Shown: in pieces, positions 3,137 to 35,927 of the stretch | Position numbering within the stretch: position 1 is the first letter of the stretch | How the letters are laid out: each line of letters starts with the position of its first letter | Origin: Rhodospirillales bacterium | GTDB taxonomy: Bacteria > Pseudomonadota > Alphaproteobacteria > Micavibrionales > Micavibrionaceae | Assembly: GCA_020638365.1 (NCBI GenBank) | Contig: JACKIQ010000005.1 | Span: 50,509 to 114,508 of the forward strand | DNA length: 64,000 bases | Direction: 5' to 3' | The notes under the pieces: model-generated | Database searches by the model: none | Told to the model about the DNA's origin: nothing | Seen by the model: only the letters and a program-made list of their open reading frames with translations | Position numbers and translations under genes: made by a program

Positions 3137-3637
3137 TTAGCGCCAGATGAGGGCTTTCCCGCTGTGGAGCACGCAGATAAGCGAAAAAAGCCGTCTCGAC
3201 GTATTCAAATCCATAAGAATTTTATCCATCAGCCGGTCCATCAGCAGCTCAGCACCTTCGTTATGAAGCCCGCGACGCCCCATGTCGATCGCCTCTATAC
3301 GCGAGGGTTTACCCTCCCGCAGCGCCTCTTCATAGCTGTGCACGATCATGAAATAGTCCTTGATCAACCGTTGATAGGGTTTAAGAGACAGCACCAGCAT
3401 CGGCAACTCATCCCCGATCACATTGGTTACGCGGAAAACAAGGCGGTTCTCTTCTATGGACAGAACGACATCGTAAGGCCCGCTATGATCCTTGACCGGC
3501 TGAAAATAGCTGTCTTGCCGCAAATCGTGCATCGCCGTCTGGTGATCCCGTACGATCAGCGTCGTTGCCCCAAGATCCTCCGCACCTCTTAGGTCGAAGC
3601 TGCGGATCCTGCTCTTGCTTGTCGGCTTCATGGGCAT
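3137..3637 (-). CDS. UPF0262 family protein
   Basis: 166 aa. The pattern LKPYQRLIKDYFMIVHSYEEA..IEAIDMGRRGLHNEGAELL matches the alphaproteobacterial UPF0262 family, which is commonly near his genes. Confidence 0.7.
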   Translation of the reverse strand: MPMKPTSKSRIRSFDLRGAEDLGATTLIVRDHQTAMHDLRQDSYFQPVKDHSGPYDVVLSIEENRLVFRVTNVIGDELPMLVLSLKPYQRLIKDYFMIVHSYEEALREGKPSRIEAIDMGRRGLHNEGAELLMDRLMDKILMDLNTSRRLFSLICVLHSGKALIWR

Positions 3638-3648
3638 GATGCAAAGCC

Positions 3649-4320
3649 CTACCCCTTCGAATGAACGGCGTTACGAAACGATTCGACCCAGCGCTCGACC
3701 TCCCCCGGACGCGTCTTGAACGCGCTGCGGTTGACGATCAGGCGCGACGACACCTCAAGGATCGTCTCGACTTCAACCAGGCCGTTCGCCTTCAGCGTCG
3801 CCCCGGAGGACACGAGATCGACGATCCGCCGCACCAGCCCCAGCGCAGGCGCGATCTCCATCGCACCGTTCAGCTTGATGCATTCCGCCTGCACCCCGCG
3901 CTTGGCGAAATGCCGCGCTGTCAGGGACGGATATTTCGTGGCAACCCGGATATGGCTCCATTTATCCGGCGCATCGGTTTCAAGATCGGCCTTTGGCACG
4001 GCCACGGACAGGCGGCACTTGCCGATCCCCAAGTCCAGCGGAGAATAAAGCTCGGTGTAATTGAACTCTTCAATGGCGTCGCTGCCCACCACGCCGAGCT
4101 GCGCCCCCCCGTAAGCCACGAAAGTCGCCACATCGAACGCCCGCACGCGGATGATATCCAGTTCCGGATGGTTGGTGGAAAACAACAGCTTTCGGCTGTC
4201 CTCGTCCTCGAAATCGGCTTCGGGCAAAATCCCGCAAGCCTTGAAAAGAGGCATGACCTCCTTCAGTATCCGGCCCTTCGGGACGGCCATGATCAGTTTT
4301 GGCGTAGCATCAGAACTCAT
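3649..4320 (-). CDS. hisG: ATP phosphoribosyltransferase, short form
   Basis: 223 aa. Motifs [40 protein letters not shown] and [15 protein letters not shown]. Confidence 0.92.
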
Positions 4321-4543
4321 GGTGTATCACTTAGCGGGAAGCGGTGAATACGGCAAGACCTTTTGCCGCACCGCACCATTTTGAACCCGCCAACCAAGAA
4401 AAGCAAGAGAAGGCAATACTGTGACAGGCAAAAACTATAGCTGTCCTCAGGGCTTGCCCAACAGAGTTTTAGACATTAACATTTTTAAACATCAGGATGT
4501 CCGGATCATTTAACTAATCGCTATATTAAATTTTTATAACCAA

Positions 4544-23002: not shown

Positions 23003-24340
23003 TCAAGCAATACCGTATGTGCTTGTGGAAACAGCGGGCGCCGCGTTATCGAACTGGCGGTCCAGACCTGGCCCCATGCCTTCGTTGAGCGCAATTCTCT
23101 GTAACGCAAGATCGTTATCGGCATGGCTGGCAAAAAATGCCGGAGCGCTGACCCCGCCTATTCGCTGGCTGGCCCCGCCCTCATCCCTCAGGGCGACCTC
23201 GACCTTCCCGCCATCGATCTCGCTGACATCCATCCCTGCGTAAGCGCTGGGCGTGGGTACAAAACCCGGACTCTCAAGCGCGGCCGTCTCGACTGGCTTG
23301 TTGTCCGCCTCGTTTGAAGCAAGCTGGGTTTCAGACTCCCCGGCATGCTCGGGTTCAAGCGCACCGTGATGGTGAGGTCCATGTTCTCTCTCCAACTCGC
23401 GCTCAATGCGACGGTCCGTAATCTGACGCTGAACCGCCCCTGAAAACGCCTCGATCGATTCCTTGACGTGCGGATTGGAATTCCCGTCAAACGCACCGTC
23501 GGCCAGAAGTTTCTTGATATGGCCGTTAAACTCCTCCGGCCGATCATTAAGCATCGTCGTCGCATCGGCAACCGAAATGCCCTGATCCGCCGCGACCTTG
23601 TTAATCATTTCACCCCGGAACGTGCGCGCCGCATTGATATGGTCGATAGTCGCCGGTCCGCTTTTATCAATCAAGATCGCCGTAGCGTGTTCGGGATCAT
23701 CCGCAGCGCCAAGAGCGCGGATATCAATCATGGCCTGAGCCATATCATCTAGCCCGTTCGCCCGCGCCCAGTTGATCGCGGCCTGATCTGCCCCGGCTTC
23801 ACGGCCAAGGGTAGCGACAAGAATCTGATCGTGAGTCATTCCGGTCGTATTTATGGGCGGCTGGTTGCAATGCGTTCCTTCATGAATACCGATAATACGG
23901 TCCCAGTGATCGTCCCAGCCGGGTATCTCGCGAATACGCTCCAGATCCTGCCGCGCTAAAAGTGGTAAAATCTCGTTCTTATGATTAAGGCTGCTGCCCT
24001 GCTCGTTAACAACACAGATCGGAATAGGCGAAGCGGTAGACCCGGCTGGCGGCTTGATTTCTGTAGGAACGGCGAACGGTCCGGAAGTAAGAGACAGAAC
24101 AACGGCAGTTCGAAGGTCAGCCGCCGTCAAGCCATTCGTAATACCGGGCATTTGCTCTTCAAGCATCTCGCGAACCTTAACCAGATCATCGGGATGAACA
24201 TTCCCCGTCTTGTCGAAATGCTCCCGGTTGAACTCATCCGGATCAAGGAATATGACAGGCCGCCCTGACGTCTCGCGAACACCGTCCTTGTAGTCGTCTA
24301 TAAACAGACTTTCCAGATCTGCAAAAAACCCTCTTCCCAT
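23003..24340 (-). CDS. hypothetical protein with an HExxH motif
   Basis: 445 aa with no signal peptide. IIGIHEGTHCNQ is a possible zincin motif. Ala/Gly/Asp-rich. Confidence 0.5.
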   Translation of the reverse strand: MGRGFFADLESLFIDDYKDGVRETSGRPVIFLDPDEFNREHFDKTGNVHPDDLVKVREMLEEQMPGITNGLTAADLRTAVVLSLTSGPFAVPTEIKPPAGSTASPIPICVVNEQGSSLNHKNEILPLLARQDLERIREIPGWDDHWDRIIGIHEGTHCNQPPINTTGMTHDQILVATLGREAGADQAAINWARANGLDDMAQAMIDIRALGAADDPEHATAILIDKSGPATIDHINAARTFRGEMINKVAADQGISVADATTMLNDRPEEFNGHIKKLLADGAFDGNSNPHVKESIEAFSGAVQRQITDRRIERELEREHGPHHHGALEPEHAGESETQLASNEADNKPVETAALESPGFVPTPSAYAGMDVSEIDGGKVEVALRDEGGASQRIGGVSAPAFFASHADNDLALQRIALNEGMGPGLDRQFDNAAPAVSTSTYGIA

Positions 24341-24399
24341 AATCGCTTACCCTGCTGTCCTTATTTTATACATAAAAAGAAACACACCGTATTATAAAA

Positions 24400-24825
24400 C
24401 TACATCTCCGGCTCTGGCGGGGGCTCCGCTGGCTCATCTTCTTCGGCATGCCTTTTTGCGAAGGGAACAACAAGCTGCTCCTGAATGAAAAGACCGCCCT
24501 CTTCCCCCGGATCGCGCGAAATAATAAACCCGGAACTGCCCTCAACAGGTTCGACCTTAAGCGATGTGTCCTCCAAAGCACCCTCGCCTCCAGCCTGAGG
24601 TTCATAGTTAAGGTTGCCTCCCGTAGGAGTAACTTTTTGCCGGGGAATACGCAAACCGCCCTCGTCTCCGGGTTCGCGTTCTATCGTGAAAGCCCCGCCA
24701 TCCTGCTCGGTCACGCTTATAGTTGAACCGTCACGCGTGTCAGCCTGCTGATCGGCGGACGCACATCCTGCCGTCGCTAGAATTGTCGCCAGAGCCACCC
24801 CCGCAAGTGTCGTCTTCTTCTCCAT
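24400..24825 (-). CDS. hypothetical lipoprotein with an internal duplication
   Basis: Start MEKKTTLAGVALATILATAGC (lipobox). Two related segments: GGAFTIEREPGDEGGLRIP and SSGFIISRDPGEEGGLFIQ. Confidence 0.6.
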   Translation of the reverse strand: MEKKTTLAGVALATILATAGCASADQQADTRDGSTISVTEQDGGAFTIEREPGDEGGLRIPRQKVTPTGGNLNYEPQAGGEGALEDTSLKVEPVEGSSGFIISRDPGEEGGLFIQEQLVVPFAKRHAEEDEPAEPPPEPEM

Positions 24826-25152
24826 AACACTCTCTTTCTTATAAATTCCCACCATTATAAGCTCTAAAAGGAAAATATGGCAAAGAAAACTTACCCTTCC
24901 CCGATAAATGAGAATATGAAGGCTTTCCTAAGGAATGAAATCCTTAACAGGAACACAGGCCAGACCGCAAACGCATAGGTTAAAAACGTCTGCGCGGTTC
25001 GAGAATCGGGATTGCACCCTCTTAAAAAATCTGCACAGACGCACACCGCCCGGCACAAAAAAAGAGACCCCGGCGATAAACACTGGGGCCTTTGAGGTTG
25101 GGGTGATAAGCTAACGAAACTACCAGATAATTTCGTTAGCAGCGGGTTGACC

Positions 25153-25290
25153 TTATCTACCGTATCCGGACCCCCTTTGTCCATTGTTATTTTTACGGAC
25201 CCGGACTGGAATTCTTTGTTTTTTGCGTGCAATAACAACCTGCGCGAACAGGGCGACAGAAGTAGCCAGTACTGCGGTTGCGATGAACAT
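25153..25290 (-). CDS. possible 45-aa small membrane protein
   Basis: MFIATAVLATSVALFAQVVIARKKQRIPVRVRKNNNGQRGSGYGR has one TM helix and a basic tail. It is flanked by a reverse-strand TTGACA-N18-TACACT (25380-25351), a 10-bp hairpin (25110-25140) and a T-run hairpin. Confidence 0.35.
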   Translation of the reverse strand: MFIATAVLATSVALFAQVVIARKKQRIPVRVRKNNNGQRGSGYGR

Positions 25291-25450
25291 TTAAAACCCT
25301 TTCGAAACGGCCCCTTTAACGGAGCGCTCATTCTTGTTGTCACTAAAGGCAGTGTATCAGCAACGCTTTGCGCCTGTCAAAATTTTAAATGATTTTTAGG
25401 AAAGATTTTTAACTTGACAAAAAAGCCTGACAAACCAGCAAATCAGCGCG

Positions 25451-26368
25451 TCATCCACCCAAAAGCGCATAAAAAGCTGCCGCTGCCGCATTGGAAACAT
25501 TAAGGCTTTTGATCGGCCCCGGCGCCGGCAGGCGTGCCAAAACATCGCAGTTTTCGCGGATTAGACGCCTAATTCCCTCGCCCTCGGACCCCAAAACCAG
25601 AACGACCTTCTCCGATTCGACTTCCTTGGCTGGCGGAGCCAGCAAAGCCGGCCCTGTAACAGTCTTCTGGCGCTTGACAGGACGCACCTCTCCGAGTGTC
25701 TGTTCGCCCCGCTCATCCAGACCGATCACGGTAAACCCTGATTCCTTAAGGTCCTCCAGCGCACGGGACAGATTCGTAGCATAAGCCACCCTCACATGTT
25801 CCACAGCCCCGCAAGCCGTCTTTGCCACGACCCCGTCCAGTTCCGGCGCGTGCTTCTTCTGCTGAATCAGCCCGTTCAGGCCGAATACGCAGGCACTGCG
25901 GAGAATCGCCCCCACATTGTGCGGATCCGTGACCTGGTCCAGCATGGCCAGAACGGTGCGCGGGCGCCCGTTCGCGGCGACGATCAGGTCCGAAAGATCG
26001 CACTCTTCCAGCGGCTGCGCAGCCAGCGCCACCCCCTGATGAACCGCCCCCTGCGGCAGGAGTTTCTCAAGCCTGCCCTTTTCGATCTCCTCCGGCTCCG
26101 GCCGGCGCAGGCCCTTGCCCCGCGCTTCCTGCAGGGTCTCCTCGAATCCCTTGATCGCCTGATCGGTCAGGTAAAGCGCTTCAATCACCCGCTCCGGGTT
26201 CAACCACGCTTCGCGCACGGCATGAAACCCGTACAGCGTCGGACGCTTATAGGCCTTCTGCGGTCCGTGCGAATGTGATGAAGACGGATTCGCAGACTTA
26301 TGCGAATGCGGCTTATGCGACCGTACTTTCGGTCCCTTCTTCGGTCCTTTGTGCGGACGGTGCTTCAT
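25451..26368 (-). CDS. rlmB: 23S rRNA (guanosine-2'-O)-methyltransferase RlmB (SpoU/TrmH family)
   Basis: 305 aa with a basic N-terminus. Motifs LYGFHAVREAW, DQVTDPHNVGAILRSA, LVLGSEGEGIR and SLNVSNAAA. Confidence 0.85.
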   Translation of the reverse strand: MKHRPHKGPKKGPKVRSHKPHSHKSANPSSSHSHGPQKAYKRPTLYGFHAVREAWLNPERVIEALYLTDQAIKGFEETLQEARGKGLRRPEPEEIEKGRLEKLLPQGAVHQGVALAAQPLEECDLSDLIVAANGRPRTVLAMLDQVTDPHNVGAILRSACVFGLNGLIQQKKHAPELDGVVAKTACGAVEHVRVAYATNLSRALEDLKESGFTVIGLDERGEQTLGEVRPVKRQKTVTGPALLAPPAKEVESEKVVLVLGSEGEGIRRLIRENCDVLARLPAPGPIKSLNVSNAAAAAFYALLGG

Positions 26369-26371
26369 ACG

Positions 26372-27232
26372 CTATTGCCTTTTCATGGTCATCTTAAACG
26401 CACCGCCGGGCTGCAGATAAGCAACCAAAGGAGCCTGATCATCCCGAAGCTCAAACGTGTAAACCGCACCGCTCATAGTCAGAGTGAACGTATTGCCGTC
26501 CTGCCTCCACACATTGACCTTGTTATAATCGTAATTCTTCGGCTCCGACCAGTTATAACCGGCGATGCCGTCCGCGCGGAAATGCATATAGGCCCCGTGC
26601 CGCCACAAGCGGATAATATCATTATCCTCTACGTTGACGACGGGAACGATAACGCCGTGCCAATAGCTGTCGACAAGCGAGCCCTTGGAGCTTGGGCTTG
26701 AAGATGGCGCTGTTTGTGGCTTCTCCACAACCGTATCAGACGCGGCAGCTACAGGAGATGAAGAAGGTCGAACAGGTATATTGCTGAAGGTCACGGGCTT
26801 CGATCCAATCCGAATACCGCGAAGATCCCAAATAACAAAAGTTCCCACGATGCTTCGCACCTGCGTGCTGTATGTCGGTAGGTTTTGAGCAACGAAATAC
26901 TCCGTATAAGGCTGCCCTGCGACCATCACTTTCCCGCCAACGGAACCGTCCTTCGTCTGCATCCGGTACTCCTTGCCGGTCTGATCCTGAATTGTGGGGT
27001 ACGCAATACCGGCCTTTTTATCCTGATACAGGCTGGTCATTTCAAATTCGCATTCCGCCGTCCGGTCCGGGGCAATCGAACACCACTTAGCCGTCACAAC
27101 AAAATCATCAACGCGAACGCTGTTCGCCTGGGTGTTCGGTAAAAAATTCTGCAATTGCGGTACAGAATTTGTTGTCTGACACCCAAACAGGAACAATGAA
27201 GAAAGCAGCATAAATGGTTGATGAAATTTCAT
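26372..27232 (-). CDS. hypothetical lipoprotein
   Basis: Start MKFHQPFMLLSSLFLFGC (lipobox). No other motif recognised. Confidence 0.55.
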   Translation of the reverse strand: MKFHQPFMLLSSLFLFGCQTTNSVPQLQNFLPNTQANSVRVDDFVVTAKWCSIAPDRTAECEFEMTSLYQDKKAGIAYPTIQDQTGKEYRMQTKDGSVGGKVMVAGQPYTEYFVAQNLPTYSTQVRSIVGTFVIWDLRGIRIGSKPVTFSNIPVRPSSSPVAAASDTVVEKPQTAPSSSPSSKGSLVDSYWHGVIVPVVNVEDNDIIRLWRHGAYMHFRADGIAGYNWSEPKNYDYNKVNVWRQDGNTFTLTMSGAVYTFELRDDQAPLVAYLQPGGAFKMTMKRQ

Positions 27233-27467
27233 GGTCAAAAACCCCGTAATCACAATTTAATAAGAAAAGACGCCCCAGACTATCGGGGCTTGACCCAGCC
27301 CTGTCAATCTTTCTATTGCCATAAGCAGCAATCCGGCCAAAAGGCAGGTTTTAACGGTCATTTTTGCTGAAATGGCATTTGTACACTTGACATCAAAAGC
27401 AAAATCTCTTTTGTTCTGTGTTCACAAATTCAACGGGCAGGCTTCTGACGCCTCCTGTTTCAAGAGT

Positions 27468-27553
27468 GGAGGGGTGGCCGAGTGGCTAAAGGCAGCAGAC
27501 TGTAAATCTGCCCTCTTCGGAGTACGTAGGTTCGAATCCTACCCCCTCCACCA
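27468..27553 (+). tRNA. tRNA-Tyr (GTA)
   Basis: GGAGGGG-TG-GCCGAGTGGCTAAAGGC, anticodon loop CTGTAAA, variable arm CTC-TTCG-GAG, T-loop GGTTCGAATCC, encoded CCA. Confidence 0.95.
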
Positions 27554-27665
27554 TGTTTTTCTATCCCTAATGCTCCGCACCCGCTTCCGGACTCTTAACC
27601 CTTTGACCTCGGGACTGCGGTGCCGGGCTTTTGGCCGACCTCCGCATCTCCGTCCATAAATAACC

Positions 27666-28664
27666 TCAGTACCCCATGATTAGCGGATGCGCTTCAAAAG
27701 ACATGCCCGTAACCCGGTAAAGCGAATGCAGCCGCTCCATGAGCGATTGCGAATGCGCGGCGATAATTTCGGGATCGCCGTTTCTGTGCCCCTGATGCCA
27801 GTTGATCACCGCCGCATCGTGTGAAATCTGCGTAATGGTCAGCAAATCCCGGTCGATTTTCGCGCCGCTCCGCTTCTCGTATTCGTCAATCGCGTAATCC
27901 AGCCCCGCATCGGGAATCATCGCGAAATCATAAAGGGCGTTCGCCCCCTGCCCGGCATAGCCCATATCGAACAACCCAGTGATCTCGTCATCGTCGTTCA
28001 CCCTGAAATTCCAGGGATGAAAATCGCCGTGATTAACTCCGGGAACGATATGCTCCCGCAGATAGCGGTCGCACCGGGCCAGGGCTTCGTTAACGTCCTG
28101 ATCGAATCCCGAAACGGGCATAACCCGCGCCCCGTAGTCGATTTCCTTTTGCTGCGGAACGACATCCGCGAGTAAAGCCTTGCCCTGCTCGTGAAAACTG
28201 GCCAGAACAGCGCCGACATTCCGGAAATGACGCTCGATAGCCCTTTTATCCGCGCCGGCCACAAAGCTCTCCCAATGGATCTCCTCGTCTTCGCATTTAT
28301 CCATCCGGTAGAGCGCAAAAGCATGGTCGCTCTGAGGCAACTCCGCCTCCCCATGGACATCGGGCGTGCGCGCGGTCGCAAAAACCCGGCCCTGTAATCT
28401 TTTGAGGACACCGACCTCATCCGTATAGACCGCTCGGGCCTTTTGCATGCCTTGCTCGCTCTCCGGCCTGAGCATGATCTTGCTGACCGTGCCGTCATGA
28501 TGATCGACCACAAGCCCGAACGACCCGAGGGCGACAACTTCGGAACCGGATACGTATTCGGGAATCTCGCCTTCAAGAAGTGAAAACTTTTTCTCGACAT
28601 GACGCTCCCACTGCGCGTCACGACCGTCTTCACCCTGCCCCGCATGTCTGAAAGAGTTTTTCAT
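27666..28664 (-). CDS. aminoglycoside/choline-kinase-type phosphotransferase (APH family)
   Basis: 332 aa. Catalytic-loop-like VNHGDFHPWNF and an ITGLFDMGYAG (DxG) motif. Confidence 0.65.
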   Translation of the reverse strand: MKNSFRHAGQGEDGRDAQWERHVEKKFSLLEGEIPEYVSGSEVVALGSFGLVVDHHDGTVSKIMLRPESEQGMQKARAVYTDEVGVLKRLQGRVFATARTPDVHGEAELPQSDHAFALYRMDKCEDEEIHWESFVAGADKRAIERHFRNVGAVLASFHEQGKALLADVVPQQKEIDYGARVMPVSGFDQDVNEALARCDRYLREHIVPGVNHGDFHPWNFRVNDDDEITGLFDMGYAGQGANALYDFAMIPDAGLDYAIDEYEKRSGAKIDRDLLTITQISHDAAVINWHQGHRNGDPEIIAAHSQSLMERLHSLYRVTGMSFEAHPLIMGY

Positions 28665-28719
28665 CTTTTCTTTTTGTATATGCTATTTCAATCTTGAAGC
28701 CCATTATAGGGACAGGCGC

Positions 28720-30261
28720 ATGGTTTTGCAAAAATCTCGTTTTCTTGATCGTCTGGAAGGAAGGCTGTACACGCGGCAAAGCGGCGCTTCGCTGGCGGTA
28801 TTCAGGATCCTTGTCGGAATCCTGATTCTCAAGGACGTGCGCAATCATTTCCTGCTCATCAAGTACCATCTGGAGTCCATCCCGTCCGATTTTATGATGC
28901 ATTACTACGGTTTTGAGTGGGTCAAGCCCCTCCCGTGGTTCATAGCTATTCAGGAAATTGTCCTGCCCCTCGCCGTGCTGTGCGTGATTTTCGGACTGTT
29001 CTATCGCGTGGCGATGCCCCTGACCACGCTGATGATCGCTTATGTCTTCCTGCTTTTCCCGGAGCATTACCTGAACCACTATTACATGCTCCTGCTGTTC
29101 TGCACGCTGATGAGCTTTATGCCTGCGAGCCGGACTTGGTCGCTGGACGCCCTGATAAAAAAGCGAACCGATGAGGGCGTGCCCGCATGGTGCTACTGGA
29201 TCCTAAGGGGTCAGACCGAAATCGTCCTTATCTATGCAGGATTGGTCAAAATCAATCCGGACTGGCTGAACCTGCAACCCCTTTCAACGTGGCTGCGCGC
29301 CGATTTTCATGACGTCCCGGTCATCGGCGGACTCTTTTACTACGATTTCACGATATTTTTGGGCGCTTACGGAATCATCCTACTGCATACGATCGGTGCG
29401 CCGCTCTTGATGTGGAGCAAAGCGCGGCCATGGATATTCGGCCTTTATGTGTGTTTTCACCTGACCAACAGCATGATTTTCGATATCGGGATGTTCCCGT
29501 TCCTGACGATCGGGGCGACGCTGTTGTTTTTCAACCCGGACTGGCCGCGAATTCTCTATTTCGGGAAGGGTGCGCCGCAGACCTTCACCGCTGAGAATAA
29601 ACCCGAAGAAGAAAAACAAGGTAGGCGCGGGCTGGTCACCGGCCTTCTGATAACCTGGCTGGGAGTGCAGGCCCTTCTCCCCCTGCCCGCTCTGATGTCC
29701 TCGAACCTCCAAACGGCGTGGACGGGACACAGGGATTTGTTTTCATGGCGCATGATGCTCAACCAGAGAACTCTGCCTGTCGCGGTTTTTGTGGCCTACA
29801 TGCCGGAAAAACATACCGTGGCGTTCGTGCCTCTGAGAAAGTACATCAGCAAGCGCCAGTGCCAGCGTAGTGTCTGGAAACCAAATCTGACCGTACAGGT
29901 CGCTCGATATCTGAAAAAGAGATATGCGGAAAGGTACGAGACGCCGGACGTTGAGATTCGCGCCTATATCCTCAATGCCGTCAATTACCGGGAACCCGAA
30001 CTCTGGGCCGACCCGTCCGCGAATCTTGCGGCCTACGTCCCCATCTACGGCGTCCATGAGTGGCTGGAACCCGTCGACAATCCTCTTCGCAGCTGGCTGG
30101 AATTGATCCGTGCTCCGAAAGTCGCGCGGCCCACCTACCGCCAAGTTTTAAAGGCGATGCGATTGCCGGAAGGCGCCACTGTCGCTTTCGATCAGAACGG
30201 CGCCGAACTTGATTCAACGGTTCCCGATATCGAATGCAACGCCCTTTATCAGGAAGACTGA
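28720..30261 (+). CDS. HTTM domain protein (vitamin K-dependent gamma-carboxylase-like)
   Basis: 513 aa. The N-terminal ASLAVFRILVGILILKD and multiple TM helices are typical of HTTM. Soluble C-terminal domain of ~180 aa. Confidence 0.7.
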   Translation: MVLQKSRFLDRLEGRLYTRQSGASLAVFRILVGILILKDVRNHFLLIKYHLESIPSDFMMHYYGFEWVKPLPWFIAIQEIVLPLAVLCVIFGLFYRVAMPLTTLMIAYVFLLFPEHYLNHYYMLLLFCTLMSFMPASRTWSLDALIKKRTDEGVPAWCYWILRGQTEIVLIYAGLVKINPDWLNLQPLSTWLRADFHDVPVIGGLFYYDFTIFLGAYGIILLHTIGAPLLMWSKARPWIFGLYVCFHLTNSMIFDIGMFPFLTIGATLLFFNPDWPRILYFGKGAPQTFTAENKPEEEKQGRRGLVTGLLITWLGVQALLPLPALMSSNLQTAWTGHRDLFSWRMMLNQRTLPVAVFVAYMPEKHTVAFVPLRKYISKRQCQRSVWKPNLTVQVARYLKKRYAERYETPDVEIRAYILNAVNYREPELWADPSANLAAYVPIYGVHEWLEPVDNPLRSWLELIRAPKVARPTYRQVLKAMRLPEGATVAFDQNGAELDSTVPDIECNALYQED

Positions 30262-30273
30262 TGAAACTAAAAC

Positions 30274-30537
30274 TTGACACGAATCGTCATCGCGATCATA
30301 GTCCGCGCTCCGCTCGGGAATGAGCCCGGCGGAAGAAAAGGTCTTTTCGAAATGAAACGCTTTTTGAACATACGCACAATGAATGCCGGGATGCTGCCCA
30401 TAGAGCGGCCAGAACGCGCATTCGATCAGCTGTGCCTGAAGGAGAGTTCCAGACCGAAGCGGTAGGTTTACCGCCTAATATTTCAAACGGATTTGAACTC
30501 TCCCAAAGCCAGACTTTCGGAGAGTTTTTTTATTTTT
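30274..30537 (+). promoter_or_regulatory. rtcB leader: sigma70-like promoter plus terminator/antiterminator element
   Basis: TTGACA (30274-79), 17 nt, CATAGT (30297-302). GGAGAGTT occurs twice (30441-48 and 30519-26), and both copies are complementary to AACTCTCC (30496-503). Confidence 0.55.
30496..30537 (+). terminator. intrinsic terminator upstream of rtcB
   Basis: 8-bp stem AACTCTCC/GGAGAGTT extended by AAAG/CTTT, loop CCAGA, then TTTTTTTATTTTT. It ends 11 nt before the rtcB SD. Confidence 0.8.
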
Positions 30538-30558
30538 GCCTGATGACAGGAGATTCAA

Positions 30559-31767
30559 ATGAGTGAGCATGTAACAATCGAAGTGGGCGGGGCACCCGTC
30601 AAAGCGTGGGTTAAGGGCGTTCCCTTTGAAATGGAGGCGCAGCTTCAGGTCGGAAACATCGCGCGTCTTCCGATTATCCATTCGCACGTGGCCGTGATGC
30701 CCGACGTTCATATGGGCAAAGGCGCGACTGTGGGATCGGTGATCGCCACGAACGGCGCGATCATCCCCGCCGCTGTGGGTGTGGATATCGGGTGCGGGAT
30801 GATGGCCATGCGCACGAGCCTGACCAGCGGGAAACTGCCTGACAGCCTAGCCGCGATCCGCCGCGAGATCGAGAAAGCGGTTCCGCACGGCGGGATCGGG
30901 ATCAAGGGCGGATGGAAAGACGGGGTGCCGAATTCCGTGGCCAGACGCTTTGCCGTTTCCGGCCTTGCCAAGGGGCTGGATATCATCGAAGACAGGCATC
31001 CGGCGATTGCCGGGGCGCATCACGTCACTCATCTCGGCTCTTTGGGATCGGGCAATCATTTTATCGAGGTCTGCCTCGATGAAGAGGATCGCGTGTGGGT
31101 GATGCTGCATTCGGGCAGTCGCGGCGTCGGCAACCGTATCGGCACGTACTTTATCGAAAAGGCGCGGGAATCCCTGATTAAAAAAGGGATCGGCCTGCCC
31201 GATAAGGATCTGTCGTGGCTTGAAGAGGGCGAGCCCCTGTTCAACGATTATATCGAGGCTTTGCTGTGGGCGCAGGATTTCGCCCGTCAGAACCGCGAGG
31301 TGATGATGGAGCGCGTGCTGAACGTGATGCGCAAGATGCTGACGCGCTTTACGATCGAAAAGCAGGCGGTGAACTGCCATCACAACTACGTGGCCCGCGA
31401 GCATCATTTCGGGGCGGATATCTGGCTGACCCGCAAGGGCGCGGTGAGCGCCCGCGAGGGTGAGCTGGGCATCATTCCCGGCAGCATGGGCGCGAAGTCC
31501 TATATCGTACGCGGCAAGGGGAACAAGGACTCGTTCTGTTCCTGCTCGCACGGGGCCGGACGGCGTATGAGCCGGACGCAGGCGAAAAGCACGTTCACGC
31601 TGGCGGATCACAGGGAAGCCACCAAGGGCGTTGAATGCCGCAAGGACTCCGGTGTTATCGACGAAACCCCCGCGGCCTACAAGGATATCGACGCGGTCAT
31701 GGCGGCTCAGACCGATCTTGTCGATATCGTGCATACGCTGCGTCAGGTTATTTGCGTGAAGGGATAG
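30559..31767 (+). CDS. rtcB: RNA-splicing ligase RtcB
   Basis: 402 aa with an AGGAG SD. Motifs VAVMPDVHMGKGATVGSV, GVDIGCGM, GSGNHFIE and HGAGR. Confidence 0.95.
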   Translation: MSEHVTIEVGGAPVKAWVKGVPFEMEAQLQVGNIARLPIIHSHVAVMPDVHMGKGATVGSVIATNGAIIPAAVGVDIGCGMMAMRTSLTSGKLPDSLAAIRREIEKAVPHGGIGIKGGWKDGVPNSVARRFAVSGLAKGLDIIEDRHPAIAGAHHVTHLGSLGSGNHFIEVCLDEEDRVWVMLHSGSRGVGNRIGTYFIEKARESLIKKGIGLPDKDLSWLEEGEPLFNDYIEALLWAQDFARQNREVMMERVLNVMRKMLTRFTIEKQAVNCHHNYVAREHHFGADIWLTRKGAVSAREGELGIIPGSMGAKSYIVRGKGNKDSFCSCSHGAGRRMSRTQAKSTFTLADHREATKGVECRKDSGVIDETPAAYKDIDAVMAAQTDLVDIVHTLRQVICVKG

Positions 31768-31836
31768 GTTATGCGCTGCAACCTCTCCCGCAAGCGTGAG
31801 TTCCGAATACCCCCGCAAGACAGGTTTTTGTTTTGC

Positions 31837-31928
31837 GGGGGCGTAGCTCAACGGCAGAGCAGCGGGTTTATACCCCGTAGCGCCAGATAAGCGGCAGGTT
31901 GTGGGTTCGAATCCCACCGCCCCTACCA
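31837..31928 (+). tRNA. atypical 92-nt tRNA, anticodon UAU (Ile-type), with a 22-nt variable region
   Basis: GGGGGCG-TA-GCTC-AACGGCA-GAGC-A-GCGGG-TTTATAC-CCCGT-[AGCGCCAGATAAGCGGCAGGTT]-GTGGG-TTCGAAT-CCCAC-CGCCCCT-A-CCA. U8, A14, G18G19 and TTC are all present. Confidence 0.7.
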
Positions 31929-31938
31929 AAACACCGCC

Positions 31939-32379
31939 TTAATCCCCCCGCCACGTGCGTGTCTTTTTGTGCTCCTTGAGCCACGCCAGAACGCCTTTCA
32001 TCTTCTGTTCAAAATCAGCCTGAAAAAACGGTTTGATAATGTAGGAGGTAATCCCGTGCTCCATAGCCTCCAGAACACGCTCCTTTTCCGCCTCCGCGGT
32101 GACCATGACAAGGGCAAGACCATCATAAGCTCTATCGGCACGAACGGCCTTAAGGACATCCAGTCCGGACATTCTGGGCATGGTCCAGTCCAGCAAAACG
32201 ATATCGAATTCCCCGGACTTGATAAGCTCCAGCGCCTCCGCCCCGTCCTGGGCGTAGGAAAAGTCGATAAAACCCATTTCGGCGCAGCTATTCTTGACCA
32301 TAGTGCGGACCACCATGTGATCGTCAACGATCAGAACCTTGATATCCTTGGGGTGAAGCAAACTCCGCACCTGTAACAT
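31939..32379 (-). CDS. single-domain response regulator (CheY-like)
   Basis: 146 aa. Motifs KVLIVDDHMVVR, DIVLLDWTMPRMSG and SYIIKPF. Confidence 0.85.
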   Translation of the reverse strand: MLQVRSLLHPKDIKVLIVDDHMVVRTMVKNSCAEMGFIDFSYAQDGAEALELIKSGEFDIVLLDWTMPRMSGLDVLKAVRADRAYDGLALVMVTAEAEKERVLEAMEHGITSYIIKPFFQADFEQKMKGVLAWLKEHKKTRTWRGD

Positions 32380-32584
32380 GAGCTAAAAGCAAATAATAAC
32401 GATAAAAAAAGAGTTGAACATTTATAGTAAGCAACTGAATAATTGGCAAATTTTAACAAAAAAATCAACACAGCCTCTATGAGTGATACTGAGCCCGGTA
32501 AATATGATTATTTGACCAAGGCCATAAAGGTATAATATAGAATATAAGGAAGAAGAAGTAAGAATAGATATAAGAGGGTTAATC

Positions 32585-33016
32585 ATGAGTATTGTCGTAG
32601 TTATAAATCCTGGAACGGAACGCTGTCGGGATTTTTTCAATTTCCTGTCCGCGGACAAACATCGCCTCTCCCGCCGCTGGCCCGACAATGTCGGCCTGAC
32701 CGAAATGACCAAGGCCGGCATCGACGCCACTGATTACGGCTGGTACATCAACGACCTGCAGCACGCGCGAATTGAGCGGATCGAAGGACCAAACGGTGAA
32801 GCGCATGACGACAACCATGGCATGTTCCGCATCGCCTTCGACCAAATGAGCGAGGGCACGCCCGCCGTTCTCGAAGCCCTGACGCATATGTCGAACACCC
32901 GCAGCGGCAACCGCCATCTGCGCTCGGCCCATTATCTGGAGCAAAACGGCCGCCTGACCCCCGTCAGCGGAAAATCCGAACCAGTTGAATTCGAACCGGA
33001 TACGCTGGAAGCGTAA
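32585..33016 (+). CDS. hypothetical protein
   Basis: 143-aa ORF with AGAGGG upstream of the ATG, after an AT-rich intergenic region. Preferred over the overlapping reverse 159-aa ORF. No motif recognised. Confidence 0.45.
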   Translation: MSIVVVINPGTERCRDFFNFLSADKHRLSRRWPDNVGLTEMTKAGIDATDYGWYINDLQHARIERIEGPNGEAHDDNHGMFRIAFDQMSEGTPAVLEALTHMSNTRSGNRHLRSAHYLEQNGRLTPVSGKSEPVEFEPDTLEA

Positions 33017-33077
33017 TGAAAACGGAAGCACTAATGTCCGGTACGCAGTAAAAACCAAAACTTTAAAAAAATTATGC

Positions 33078-35927
33078 TCAAGGCTCTGGATCGACGATCA
33101 GGAACGGATCGGCGTCAATCGTGCTGCCAGCATCCAATGTGACTTCCGCCGGCAAAAGACCCGCAGGATTGCCCCACCAGTTACCCTCGGCCATAAGGTT
33201 CCCGCCGTCCAGATCGACCCGGATTTCCGTGCTGTTATTCCCGAAAATCCGGTTATTCCCCGTACTGCCCAAAACACCGCCACCCAGATCAACGGTAGAA
33301 GCCAGACTGGAATCATCGTCTATGAACACGCCGTGTACAGTATTTCCGTTCGATGTATTTCCCTGGACCTTGGCAGAAACGCGTCCGTTATTTAAAGCCT
33401 GCAAAAGCAGACCATAAGTATTTCCCGTGACTGTATTTGAAGAAATTGTTCCGCTGACGTATGTATCAACAATGCTGCGCAATGCAATTCCTGCAAAATT
33501 TCCGCTGGCCGAATTGTTGTAAATATTGGCCGTCGCAGTCGCCGTATCGGTCACCGCCTGAACAAGTATGCCGTACTGAAGATTGTTATTTGAAACATTG
33601 TCGTGAATATCGGTCGTCAGGCTCGCTGTATTCTGTGTGTATTGATATATTCCCAGATGCCCGTTCCCGTTTGCGGTATTTCCGGAAATGGTACTGGTGA
33701 TCTGCGAAGTGTTGCTTGAATTAGTTTGCAAACCCACTGCTTGAGTCGACCCGACATTGTTATTCGCTGTGTTATCAACAAGACTGAGAGTTGCCTGGCT
33801 ATTATGAACAGTCTGAAGCCTGAAACCCTCATCGAAATTAGAACTGAAATCGTTACCCTGAACATCTAGATCGGTCTGCGAATCTTCATAGTTTGTAACG
33901 ACCATTCCGGTTATGCCGCTCGCAGTCACTCTGTTACCTCTAAAATCACCGTTAAAAAAACTGAAATTACGAACCGTTGCAGCAATGCCGTTATTACCGC
34001 TACCCGTGATCGTATTGTCCCGGATATCGGCGTTTATAGTACTGTCATGGTACGATTCAAAAATAAGCCCTCGGCTTACTGAGTTTCTGATCGTACTATC
34101 CCTCAGTATAATATTCGTAACCGCGTCATAGAAAGAGAAGATATAGACGCCTTCTATATTGGCATCAAAAAGACTGTCAGAAGCCGTGACGCTGACAATA
34201 CTCTCATTATTGGACTGAATCTGCAATCCACGCCCCAGCCCTGTGGTGTTATTCCGAATAATGCTGTTTGAAAAATCAACGCTCATCCGGCTGCTCACAT
34301 AACCGTTTAGGTAAACGCTCCTGTCGGAATCGTTATCGGACAGAAAATTATCAAAACGCCCCGTTATTTGACTAGTCAAATTCGTCTGCATAAACACGCC
34401 GTTCGAAGCGTTGTTTTTGGTGATGCTGTCAAGGACATCCACGTTCAGAACCGCATCGCTCGAAGTCTGGATATCCAGCCCCCGCCCGCCGTTATTATCC
34501 GCCGTCACCCCCTCAAGTATCAGAGAATTCGAACTGCCCGCGGCGTTGTAATAAGCATCCAGCCCGTCAAACGTGTTATTCCGAAGAATGACATTGGAGA
34601 TTGAAAGATTGTCTACATTATCGACATCCATCCCGAAAGTGCTGGCCCCGTCTACGGTTAAGCCCGCCACTTTGACATCGTCGGCAATCACTCTTATGCC
34701 GCTTCCACCGATATTGGAGAGAACCGGCGCGCTCGTAGCCTGTGCGAGCAAAAGCGATGAATTATCTACGGCGTTGCCGTTATGTGTGGCGAATATACCG
34801 CGATCATAGTAAAAATCTGCGCCGCTGCCGACCAACTGCTGCCCCGTCTGGTTAAGGGTAATCCCTGTATTCTGATTGGCAGACGTCCCGTCCCCTTCAT
34901 GAACATAGATAATGCTGTGCGCCGTGGCTGCGGCCTGCGCGTTCGCAAGCGTATTGAACGGCGCCTCCACGCTGCCGTCCCCGCCACCTACCGCCATGTT
35001 ATCGACATGCAGCACAACCTGCGAACTGCCCGTAGCGATATTATCGACCACCACACGATCACCTGTATCTACGACCTTCTGTCCGGTCACGATATCGATA
35101 TCCCGCTCCGGCGCGTCGTCCAGCCGCCCGCGCAGCCCATCCGACCGGAAGCTTTTCTTATGCCCGAAAGGAAAGCGCAAGGTCGCCTCTAAAAACCCCT
35201 GGCTCCCGCGCTCGTCATCCCTCTGGAAACGCGCTCCGATTTGGACATCCGGAGTGATATCGGCGGCAACCCGCACGCGCCACCCGGCAATATTCTCGGT
35301 ATTCGGCCCGTCGAAGTAATACCCTCCGCCGTAAACCCGCACAGCGTCCGTATGCTCACGGATCAGCCCGATCTTCTGCCCCAGTTCCCAGCCGACCTCG
35401 ATATCGAACCCCGCCTGTGCTTCTTCAAGGGCGGTGCCGTCCGTATCCACCACGATCCCCGTTCCGGCAAACTCCGGTCCTTTCGGATCGGTGTTTGGAA
35501 CCGTAAAACGCCGCTCGTCCGAAAGGGGAATATAACCATTGGCCAGAATGTCCAGCGCCTCCCCGCGCCATTCCGCGCCTAACGTAATCTGGTGGAACGT
35601 GGAATCGTTCTCTGTGATCCGGCGGTCGAACCAGCCATTGACCCCGGCCACGCCCTTGCCAAGAATGGGCGCAGTCGTGATAGTACGGTAACCGATCCCG
35701 AAATTCCCCTCGTGATTATCCTGATCGTCGCCCATCAGACGGACATCGGCATAAAGAACGCTATCCTCGTCCTGCAGAATAGGCGCCCAGAAATCCGTCA
35801 TCAGAATCGAACGCTCGGTGCCGTACCGCCAGTTTACCTCCGCCCGGCCCTTGAGTGGCTCCGGGTCGGCAAACGCAGGATTCGCTGGACACAGCAAGGC
35901 GCACCCGCTCAAAAGAGACAGGATCAC
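33078..35927 (-). CDS. inverse autotransporter (intimin/invasin-type beta-barrel) with a parallel beta-helix repeat passenger
   Basis: 949 aa. The N-terminal GNFGIGYRT..GVNGWFDRR..LGAEWRGEALDILANGYIPLS matches the IAT beta-domain. The remainder is ~20 PbH1-like repeats (N..S.N...G) ending ..EGNWWGNP. Confidence 0.7.
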   Translation of the reverse strand: MILSLLSGCALLCPANPAFADPEPLKGRAEVNWRYGTERSILMTDFWAPILQDEDSVLYADVRLMGDDQDNHEGNFGIGYRTITTAPILGKGVAGVNGWFDRRITENDSTFHQITLGAEWRGEALDILANGYIPLSDERRFTVPNTDPKGPEFAGTGIVVDTDGTALEEAQAGFDIEVGWELGQKIGLIREHTDAVRVYGGGYYFDGPNTENIAGWRVRVAADITPDVQIGARFQRDDERGSQGFLEATLRFPFGHKKSFRSDGLRGRLDDAPERDIDIVTGQKVVDTGDRVVVDNIATGSSQVVLHVDNMAVGGGDGSVEAPFNTLANAQAAATAHSIIYVHEGDGTSANQNTGITLNQTGQQLVGSGADFYYDRGIFATHNGNAVDNSSLLLAQATSAPVLSNIGGSGIRVIADDVKVAGLTVDGASTFGMDVDNVDNLSISNVILRNNTFDGLDAYYNAAGSSNSLILEGVTADNNGGRGLDIQTSSDAVLNVDVLDSITKNNASNGVFMQTNLTSQITGRFDNFLSDNDSDRSVYLNGYVSSRMSVDFSNSIIRNNTTGLGRGLQIQSNNESIVSVTASDSLFDANIEGVYIFSFYDAVTNIILRDSTIRNSVSRGLIFESYHDSTINADIRDNTITGSGNNGIAATVRNFSFFNGDFRGNRVTASGITGMVVTNYEDSQTDLDVQGNDFSSNFDEGFRLQTVHNSQATLSLVDNTANNNVGSTQAVGLQTNSSNTSQITSTISGNTANGNGHLGIYQYTQNTASLTTDIHDNVSNNNLQYGILVQAVTDTATATANIYNNSASGNFAGIALRSIVDTYVSGTISSNTVTGNTYGLLLQALNNGRVSAKVQGNTSNGNTVHGVFIDDDSSLASTVDLGGGVLGSTGNNRIFGNNSTEIRVDLDGGNLMAEGNWWGNPAGLLPAEVTLDAGSTIDADPFLIVDPEP

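Follow-up and report, generated by a model that had tools for sequence, protein, structure and literature searches.

We examined a stretch of 64,000 nucleotides (nt) from a Rhodospirillales bacterium (contig JACKIQ010000005.1, positions 50,509 to 114,508; hereafter the window), and conclude that the interval preceding rtcB, the gene of an RNA-repair ligase, is probably a ribosome-mediated (leader-peptide) transcription attenuator. Three features of this leader point to such a switch: an intrinsic terminator immediately 5' of rtcB, a conserved antiterminator formed on the 5' arm of that terminator, and a small open reading frame (sORF) that overlaps the other antiterminator arm and has a suitably placed stop codon. 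An earlier reading of this DNA, made from its letters alone (the sequence-only reading), had recognised the alternative pairings and left it open whether they belonged to a riboswitch or to an attenuator. The attenuator is favoured by the sORF, which is conserved, runs through the antiterminator arm and was absent from that reading; no conserved ligand-binding aptamer is evident upstream of this sORF.

Alternative pairings in front of rtcB

The leader (Table 1) contains a 5' terminator arm, T5, that takes part in two helices, pairing with T3 in the terminator and with arm A in the antiterminator. The elements that the sequence-only reading had described are located where it placed them, namely the sigma70-like promoter, the terminator arms (AACTCTCC at 30496-503 and GGAGAGTT at 30519-26, with the T-run to 30537), the second exact GGAGAGTT at 30441-48, which is able to pair with T5, and the AGGAG and ATG of rtcB. 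The two pairings, which it had regarded as mutually exclusive, were both returned by an inverted-repeat search, the terminator as 13-nt arms (30496-508 and 30514-526, 92% complementary) and the antiterminator as 16-nt arms (30441-456 and 30488-503, 81% complementary). The 8-mer, whose recurrence it had judged unlikely by chance, has 4 copies on both strands of the 64 kilobases (kb) against 1.9±1.25 expected, three of the four lying within 86 nt in the leader.

Folded alone, the terminator hairpin has an energy of -14.3 kcal/mol and the A..T5 domain one of -24.7 kcal/mol. The window transcript cut at T5 folds as the A:T5 helix, closed by hairpin H2, and the complete naked leader also prefers the antiterminator (-76.4 kcal/mol, versus -72.0 kcal/mol for the best fold that contains the terminator), so that termination in the window would need something such as a ribosome. 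A simple terminator scan did not flag the rtcB-leader terminator, which has an internal C/C mismatch, and flagged H2 instead. Only 21 nt lie between the T-run and the rtcB ATG, which leaves no space for a separate rtcB promoter.

Both helices are conserved, and their arms covary, in ten distinct versions of the leader, those of the window and of nine relatives. Counted on an alignment of the 3' domain, the terminator with H2 has 85.6% standard pairs, against 36-55% in slid controls, in which pairing partners were moved by 1-3 columns; the A:T5 helix is 92% paired and, together with H2, 90.7% paired, against 41-49% in the slid controls. At two positions both partners have changed, and they have done so in A, T5 and T3 together. 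Where the window has GGAGAGTT, AACTCTCC and GGAGAGTT in the three arms, the GC-rich relatives have GGAGGGTT, AACCCTCC and GGAGGGTT, and locus L175 (loci are cited by L numbers) has GAAGGGTT, AACCCTTC and GAAGGGTT; a more distant leader, L107, has GGAGGCT, AGCCTCC and GGAGGCT. Covariation is seen in H2 too (GGCGGTA/TACCGCC, ATGCGG/CCGCAT, TGCGATA/TATCGCA), the column pair 32/43 being A-U in five versions and G-C in five. Across the wider, phylogenetically related family described below, folds of transcripts cut before T3 join the T5 core to the A segment in 40 of 47 leaders, against 17±2.5 when the A segment is shuffled, and when T3 is added most leaders fold into the terminator. Hairpin H3 could form alongside the terminator, and it overlaps the 3' arm of the extended antiterminator; its counterpart in L085, TTGAAA-CAGA-TTTCAA, carries a compensatory G/C swap, and the GC-rich relatives have ATCCG-GNRA-CGGAT instead.

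Table 1. Features of the rtcB leader and its surroundings, in window positions unless a locus is named.
Feature	Position	Strand	Remarks
sigma70-type promoter	-35 TTGACA 30274-79; -10 CATAGT 30297-302	+	17-nt spacer; 10/12 matches in a consensus scan
P1, 5'-terminal hairpin of the leader transcript	30309..30333	+	RNAfold, in every truncation tested
Shine-Dalgarno-like AAAAGG	30336..30341	+	purine-rich; 10 nt 5' of the sORF ATG; weak in the window
sORF (putative leader peptide)	30352..30465	+	ATG 30352, TAG 30463-65; 37 amino acids, MKRFLNIRTMNAGMLPIERPERAFDQLCLKESSRPKR
Stem-loop Hm	30381..30423	+	within the sORF; apical hairpin GCUGC-CCAUAGA-GCGGC 30393-30409; loop contains ATA codon 17 (30400-02)
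Arm A, antiterminator 5' arm	30441..30456	+	core GGAGAGTTC 30441-49, extended to 30456; inside the sORF
Hairpin H2	30459..30474	+	GCGGTA-GGTT-TACCGC; includes the sORF stop codon
Hairpin H3	30482..30497	+	TTCAAA-CGGA-TTTGAA; read from the sequence
Intrinsic terminator	30495..30537	+	T5 GAACTCTCC(C)AAAG, loop CCAGA, T3 CTTT(C)GGAGAGTT, then TTTTTTTATTTTT
T5	30495-30503	+	common to terminator and antiterminator
T3	30514-30526	+	
T-run	30525-37	+	TTTTTTTATTTTT
rtcB	30559-31767	+	coding sequence; ribosome-binding site AGGAG 30548-52; Pfam RtcB E = 1.7e-127
Upstream open reading frame	28720-30261		HTTM/VKGC-type protein
Hairpin after rtcB	31811-31843	+	CCCCCGCAAGACAG...UUGUUUUGCGGGGG; strong; 3' arm overlaps the 5' strand of the tRNA acceptor stem
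tRNA, anticodon UAU	31839-31928	+	18-nt extra arm; 70 nt after rtcB
GC-rich hairpin pair	L173 3237-3310; L174 3219-3290; L175 about 3330-3378; L176 3237-3310; L178 3231-3310		

Conservation of the leader across alphaproteobacterial rtcB loci

Searches of genome and metagenome collections gave RtcB proteins of at most 74% identity among the matches listed, and closer relatives were reached through protein homologues and the contigs that encode them. The closest of these (76-84% identity), traced to their contigs, provided the nine relatives used above. Their rtcB genes have differing neighbours, among them Dot/Icm-like genes, YceI, DUF6782 and ankyrin-repeat proteins, while all nine keep the promoter, P1, the ATG, A, H2, T5, T3 and the T-run; the leader therefore travels with rtcB as a module. 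The promoter, as (A)ACTTGAC(A/T)-17/18-TAtnnn, stands at the same position in 9 of 9 despite the differing upstream genes, and by eye a hairpin of differing sequence occupies the P1 site in all relatives. The gap 5' of rtcB measures 280-650 nt in all but P0006 (L171, L172), in which we found no leader, and it aligns with the window leader from the -35 box to the start of rtcB. Orthologous loci thus share the duplicated arm and the alternative pairing, with covarying arms, as the sequence-only reading had expected of a real switch.

Plain sequence searches with the leader (blastn and nhmmer, against 169 rtcB loci among the matches listed) reached the close clade only, and a covariance model of the 3' domain, R1, was therefore needed. 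Run on 163 rtcB loci among the matches listed, with RtcB 60-78% identical, R1 gave 47 plus-strand matches within 420 nt 5' of rtcB and only 9 elsewhere. They come from Hyphomonas, Henriciella, Hirschia, Ponticaulis, Maricaulis, Caulobacter, Pelagibius and many alphaproteobacterial metagenome-assembled genomes (MAGs); cultivable carriers include strains recorded as Hyphomonas johnsonii, Hyphomonas chukchiensis, Ponticaulis profundi, Pelagibius marinus and Caulobacter sp. In each leader a GGAGG-like A lies 40-70 nt 5' of a T5 that contains CCUCC, after which come GGAGGG and a T-run. The terminator is kept in about 57 loci, including all leader-positive ones, where it lies 5' of rtcB, and the A/T5/T3 core is almost invariant, as GGAGG/CCUCC, across the family.

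No Rfam family corresponds to the leader. Over the whole window, Rfam 15 returned only five tRNAs at the gathering score; in the leader it gave nothing at E up to 10 apart from a Mu-gpT-DE match, below threshold, that covers the ribosome-binding site of rtcB, and in the leaders of 20 homologous loci no family reached the gathering score. This agrees with the earlier impression that the element belongs to no named riboswitch class, and no known, unrelated element came up that would explain the region. Our literature search found no precedent for a leader peptide, attenuator, riboswitch or upstream open reading frame (uORF) on rtcB, including when rtcB was combined with Caulobacter. A Y RNA or YrlA identity for the window's own leader was ruled out, as Rfam gave no match at E up to 10. 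An origin of the leader in phage was also ruled out: in phiCbK, rtcB lies 28 nt after the upstream gene and is without a leader.

Proposed translation of the leader and rival explanations

The sORF frame is free of stops in 10 of 10 clade versions, over 35-51 codons, whereas nearly every version has stops in the other two frames. Gene callers annotated the sORF in L173, L174, L176 and L179, and the GC-rich versions have a clear AAGGA Shine-Dalgarno sequence 8 nt 5' of its ATG. Arm A begins 22 nt 5' of the stop in eight of the ten versions, and 19 and 16 nt 5' of it in the other two. Family-wide, an ATG-initiated frame of at least 25 amino acids that spans A and ends before T5 occurs in 41 of 48 leaders, versus 9.7±2.7 (maximum 18) in dinucleotide shuffles; the first base of GGAGG has a median distance of 17 nt (interquartile range 13.5-22) to the stop, the median from the stop to T5 is 30 nt, and all three stop codons are used. 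This A-to-stop distance places A within, or at the edge of, the footprint of a terminating ribosome.

The peptide itself drifts nearly neutrally, with substitutions spread evenly over codon positions and with GGAGG occurring in all three reading frames across subgroups. Within subgroups the leader peptides resemble one another recognisably, examples being ...RMEDAG* in Hyphomonas, MAHKAPT..LDRQVE.. in Caulobacter, ..PIRRRVVK..VAYRDEQ..RARRSSAF* in a Hyphomonadaceae-MAG subgroup and MKP...EGFxxxR* in the window clade. Judged from these sequences, it would be the RNA motif and the act of translation that are conserved, and not the peptide, the pattern expected of a leader frame that needs only to be translated.

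We hypothesise that the switch would work as follows. Transcription would begin near 30309, the predicted start, and yield a leader RNA with a 37-codon frame whose last third includes A (GGAGAGUUC). The potential partner of A, T5 (GAACUCUCC), serves as the 5' arm of the terminator as well. In the OFF state, a first ribosome close behind the polymerase would reach the stop codon in H2, 22 nt after the first base of A; by protecting about 12-15 nt 5' of its P site it would mask all of A, or its 3' half, and melt H2, so that T5, 30 nt downstream, would be left with T3 as partner and transcription would end at the T-run (about 30537). In the ON state, with the ribosome late, stalled earlier in the frame or absent, A would be free as T5 emerges, and the A:T5 helix closed by H2 would form first, leaving no terminator and allowing read-through into rtcB and probably also into the tRNA that follows it. 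Since the ribosome cannot reach the terminator itself, translation could only favour termination, and RtcB would be made when translation is impaired, for example by damaged tRNA or rRNA or by ribosome inhibitors. An inducer of this kind would fit with what is said of RtcR, the activator of the E. coli rtcBA operon, which reportedly responds to damaged tRNAs. It would also fit with the induction of E. coli rtcBA by agents that impair the translation apparatus (PMC5175333), and with the report that RtcB reseals MazF-cut 16S rRNA in E. coli (PMC5416887).

A more specialised form of this mechanism, to which we give rather low credence, is that the switch senses ribosome integrity directly, through the Shine-Dalgarno sequence GGAGG in A and T3 and the anti-Shine-Dalgarno mimic CCUCC in T5. 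A ribosome on the stop codon would have A about 5-14 nt behind its P site, within reach of the 3' end of its 16S rRNA, and intact ribosomes would capture A and cause termination; if the 16S 3' end were lost or damaged, as could follow from MazF- or colicin-type cleavage, or if few initiation-competent ribosomes remained, A would be left to T5 and the ligase would be switched on. The near-invariance of GGAGG/CCUCC could, though, be explained by the three-way pairing constraint alone.

The window clade offers a candidate 1:2 anti-antiterminator: AUGAAACC, at the start of the sORF, is the complement of GGUUUCAU, a segment that overlaps A in its 3' half. This helix is paired at 69%, against 33-48% in slid controls, and is extended in L174, L175 and L178. 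As a trp-like 1:2 pairing, this candidate would account for the conserved 'MKP' and 'GF' of the peptide.

Several observations weigh against a switch operated by a translating ribosome. In the window and the AT-rich relatives, only a weak Shine-Dalgarno-like sequence precedes the ATG, at a distance of about 10 nt. Synonymous versus non-synonymous and codon-position counts gave neither a third-codon-position bias nor a sign that purifying selection acts on the peptide, outside the close pair L085/L170, and because a signature of selection at the peptide level is absent, the case for the putative translation of the sORF rests on the conservation of frame, start and stop. The contiguous A:T5 complement amounts to only 4-7 base pairs (bp) in the distant subgroups, and the relatedness of the sequences means that the shuffle statistics overstate their independence. 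The candidate pairing of the start region with A, which bears on the ribosome-free state, is itself weak in the window, and across the family an anti-antiterminator was not supported (A paired upstream in 35 leaders, against 31±3 in shuffled ones). Finally, the interior of the sORF, in a stretch from the ATG to A that is poorly conserved in sequence and varies in length by 48 nt, contains the recurrent stem-loop Hm, whose apical hairpin RNAfold predicts at an equivalent place in nine of ten versions, with differing stems and an AUA or AUAU loop in seven of ten. Hm is possibly a pause or timing hairpin for RNA polymerase, and it could also be the binding site of a factor other than the ribosome.

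The recurrence of Hm is what would be expected of a switch that binds a ligand, a protein or an RNA, in which the region from P1 to A, and Hm especially, would set the availability of A, perhaps by a T-box-like contact with the UAU-anticodon tRNA, and the sORF would be incidental. The riboswitch type of terminator/antiterminator platform would suit such a switch, as would the presence of that tRNA after rtcB in four clade members. We find it improbable, nevertheless, because the sequence in which the binding site should lie is variable, we saw neither a conserved multi-helix junction nor an invariant unpaired core in it, and Rfam, searched at E up to 10, gave no match to any family, not even to the T-box; AUAU loops are also present in L173 and L178, both of which are without the tRNA, and the frame spanning A and its fixed stop-to-A distance would go unexplained. 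The same AUA can be read as a codon. Codon 17 of the sORF is ATA in five of five AT-rich clade members, with differing codons around it, and codon 7 is ATA in three, whereas in the long open reading frames of the window only 9.5 codons per 1000 are ATA; four of these five members carry tRNA(UAU) after rtcB. A ribosome might thus stall at rare leader ATA codons, and the operon would supply RtcB together with the AUA-reading tRNA, other subgroups sensing tRNAs of their own, as the tRNA arrays after rtcB and the conserved AYRDEQMD-like leader patch of the Hyphomonadaceae-MAG subgroup might suggest. This codon-specific sensor also seems unlikely to us, for the ATA lies in the Hm loop and the AUAU loops of L173 and L178 are out of frame, so that the conservation may be at the level of RNA. 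Moreover, L086 has the ATA and no tRNA, L174 has an ATA elsewhere and no UAU tRNA, the amino-acid composition of the MAG leaders is by our own count not enriched for the amino acids of the tRNA arrays, and the sample is small and phylogenetically non-independent.

Least of all do we expect that there is no switch, and that the sORF or the RNA of about 230 nt is an independent small gene with a leaky terminator, rtcB being expressed by constitutive read-through and the second copy of the arm a by-product. The terminated leader would be a stable RNA with a 5' hairpin and a 3' terminator, resembling a small RNA, and alphaproteobacterial leader transcripts can act in trans, as is reported for rnTrpL (PMC7968998). 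A by-product would not be expected to change together with T5 and T3 in several lineages, nor to pair with T5 in truncated transcripts far above the shuffled expectation; the element follows rtcB into unrelated neighbourhoods, always immediately 5' of rtcB or of an rsr-rtcB operon, and its peptide is not conserved, unlike that of a functional small protein.

Two further observations concern the leader. An ATG in the P1 loop starts an 11-codon mini-frame without a Shine-Dalgarno sequence (30320-30355, plus strand), whose TGA overlaps the sORF start (ATGA); the layout is the same in L085, and in L087 the two frames are fused. The segment ATTTGAA (30491-30497), just 5' of T5, is perfectly complementary to TTCAAAT (30554-30560), which overlaps the rtcB start codon. 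By eye this match is not kept in L085 or L087, and it is probably due to chance.

Probable regulation in place of RtcR and the genes around rtcB

To our knowledge, the role of bacterial RtcB and its inducing signal are still debated, and the enzyme has been studied almost only through the enterobacterial RtcR/sigma54 system. The RtcB of the window is 56% identical to that of E. coli. The sequence-only reading saw neither rtcR nor rtcA in the window and proposed a cis-acting RNA switch in their stead. Indeed, tblastn with E. coli RtcR and RtcA gave no homologue anywhere in the window, and no match to the sigma54 promoter TGGCAC-N5-TTGCW, with up to 2 mismatches, was found from 23334 to 34221. 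Across the loci, none of the 46-47 that have the leader contains rtcR or rtcA; the 19 loci with rtcR and the 17 with rtcA are all leader-negative (tblastn, E. coli queries). This mutual exclusion, together with the retention of the whole leader in differing neighbourhoods, supports the proposed replacement.

One locus, L046, has a typical leader (280-515, with promoter, 34-amino-acid sORF, A, T5 and T3) 2.5 kb 5' of rtcB. Between positions 280 and 4230 the order is leader, three YrlA-like RNAs, a TROVE/VWA Rsr-like open reading frame (1611-2897) and then rtcB, the YrlA-like matches (889-957, 1143-1212 and 1275-1385) having E values of 1e-5 to 0.03, all below the Rfam gathering score. The Salmonella rsr-yrlBA-rtcBA operon is said to be controlled by RtcR, and L046 mirrors that gene set, here behind an attenuator if our reading of the leader is right. 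Rsr-like genes are also found 5' of rtcB in L032, L096, L105, L127, L135 and, partially, L125, and downstream of rtcB in L054, where the available flanks are in each case too short to show a leader.

The RtcR system, based on a sigma54 activator with a CARF domain (PMC5175333, PMC10159003), regulates the same genes, to which L046 adds the YrlA-like RNAs and the Rsr-like gene, and likely has the same trigger as the rtcB leader, damage to the translation apparatus. The two differ in that RtcR is a protein activator that senses tRNA fragments and acts at initiation, whereas the rtcB leader would be a sensor made of cis-acting RNA and the ribosome, acting at termination; the leader-bearing loci, as said, are without rtcR and rtcA, and no sigma54 promoter lies near the window leader. 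The leader has more in common with the attenuators of amino-acid operons (trpL, hisL, leuL, thrL, pheL and the trpL of Sinorhizobium): a short 5' frame, exclusive hairpins with one arm in common, a stop codon at which a terminating ribosome would block the antiterminator, and a pause-type hairpin in the leader. Unlike them, it lacks a run of regulatory codons in any subgroup's peptide, controls an RNA ligase and not a biosynthetic operon, has a weakly supported equivalent of the 1:2 anti-antiterminator, and keeps an almost invariant core in A, T5 and T3.

Stalling uORF attenuators, such as Listeria rli80-hflXr (PMC6310831), B. subtilis vmlR (PMC9226507) and bmrCD (PMC4191407) and the E. coli topAI uORF (bioRxiv 10.1101/682021), come closer still to the proposed working of the leader and also use a small frame and a terminator/antiterminator to link the progress of the ribosome to a factor that rescues or protects the translation machinery. 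The closest in logic is hflXr, in which stalled ribosomes induce a ribosome-recycling factor (PMC6310831). These leaders are short (14 amino acids in rli80, with an RLR arrest motif), tuned to antibiotics and mostly confined to Firmicutes or to single species, whereas the rtcB leader peptide has 28-51 amino acids and no shared arrest motif, the family extends over several alphaproteobacterial lineages, and what it would control is RNA repair. With the T-box riboswitch the leader shares a terminator/antiterminator tied to tRNA biology, given the AUA loop and the nearby gene of a UAU-anticodon tRNA; it differs in having no Rfam RF00230-type match, by eye no Stem I or K-turn and no UGGN antiterminator bulge, and in having a conserved frame. 

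The rtcB leader would thus represent a new and widespread family of ribosome-mediated attenuators, on a class of genes not previously known to be so regulated. The same ligase would be tied to a different sensor, with translation of the leader frame deciding between termination and read-through, in L046 for a whole Rsr/Y-RNA/RtcB set. If true, this would provide evidence of an independent, evolutionary kind that RtcB has been selected for responding to failure of the translation machinery. It also offers a simple cis-element of about 230 nt for work with reporters and genetics in bacteria of the Caulobacter and Hyphomonas types, and Rfam and the annotation of genomes would gain a new candidate RNA family.

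Downstream of rtcB in the window lie a strong hairpin and the UAU-anticodon tRNA (Table 1), both probably co-transcribed with rtcB. They are also found after rtcB in L085, L087 and L170, with the tRNA at 4281-4372, 4281-4373 and 2777-2868, respectively, and the hairpin has a different inner sequence at the same place. From its sequence, this hairpin would compete with the formation of the acceptor stem. The extra arm of the tRNA, 18-20 nt long, has a 3-bp covarying stem (CGC/GCG, CGA/TCG, CAA/TTG, ACC/GGT) and a nearly invariant 7-nt loop, CAGAUAA. This loop differs only by A at position 33 from the anticodon loop of tRNA-Ile(GAU), which we take to be CUGAUAA; one idea is that the extra arm could serve as a decoy 'GAU anticodon arm' that lets isoleucyl-tRNA synthetase charge an AUA-reading tRNA. 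We found nothing in the literature on a tRNA with such an extra arm. The same odd tRNA, with unrelated acceptor stems, is present in 15 IMG/VR viral contigs (L182-L196).

In the Hyphomonadaceae-MAG subgroup (L010-L013, L016, L018, L092 and L098), tRNA genes or arrays (Asp, Gln, Tyr, Met-like, Pro, Glu), encoded on the same strand, come after rtcB, and since the window clade has its own tRNA, modules of rtcB plus tRNA recur in two of the leader subgroups. Those arrays include an 84-87-nt type-II tRNA close to the neighbouring tRNA-Tyr but with anticodon CAU (L012 5193-5276, L013 4439-4525, L098 2887-2973). The GC-rich relatives have no tRNA after rtcB and carry instead a conserved pair of GC-rich hairpins, ..GGCGGAATCCGCC.. 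and then GGGGACCGGCGG...CCGCCGGTCCC (Table 1), which matched no Rfam family at E up to 0.01 and may simply be the terminator of the operon.

The rtcB coding sequence of the window has about 69-70% DNA identity to the rtcB of phiCbK-like giant Caulobacter phages. In phiCbK, rtcB comes after a Band-7/SPFH gene and a small open reading frame of unassigned function, and in some gammaproteobacterial loci SPFH and RlaP genes, together with rtcR, flank rtcB.

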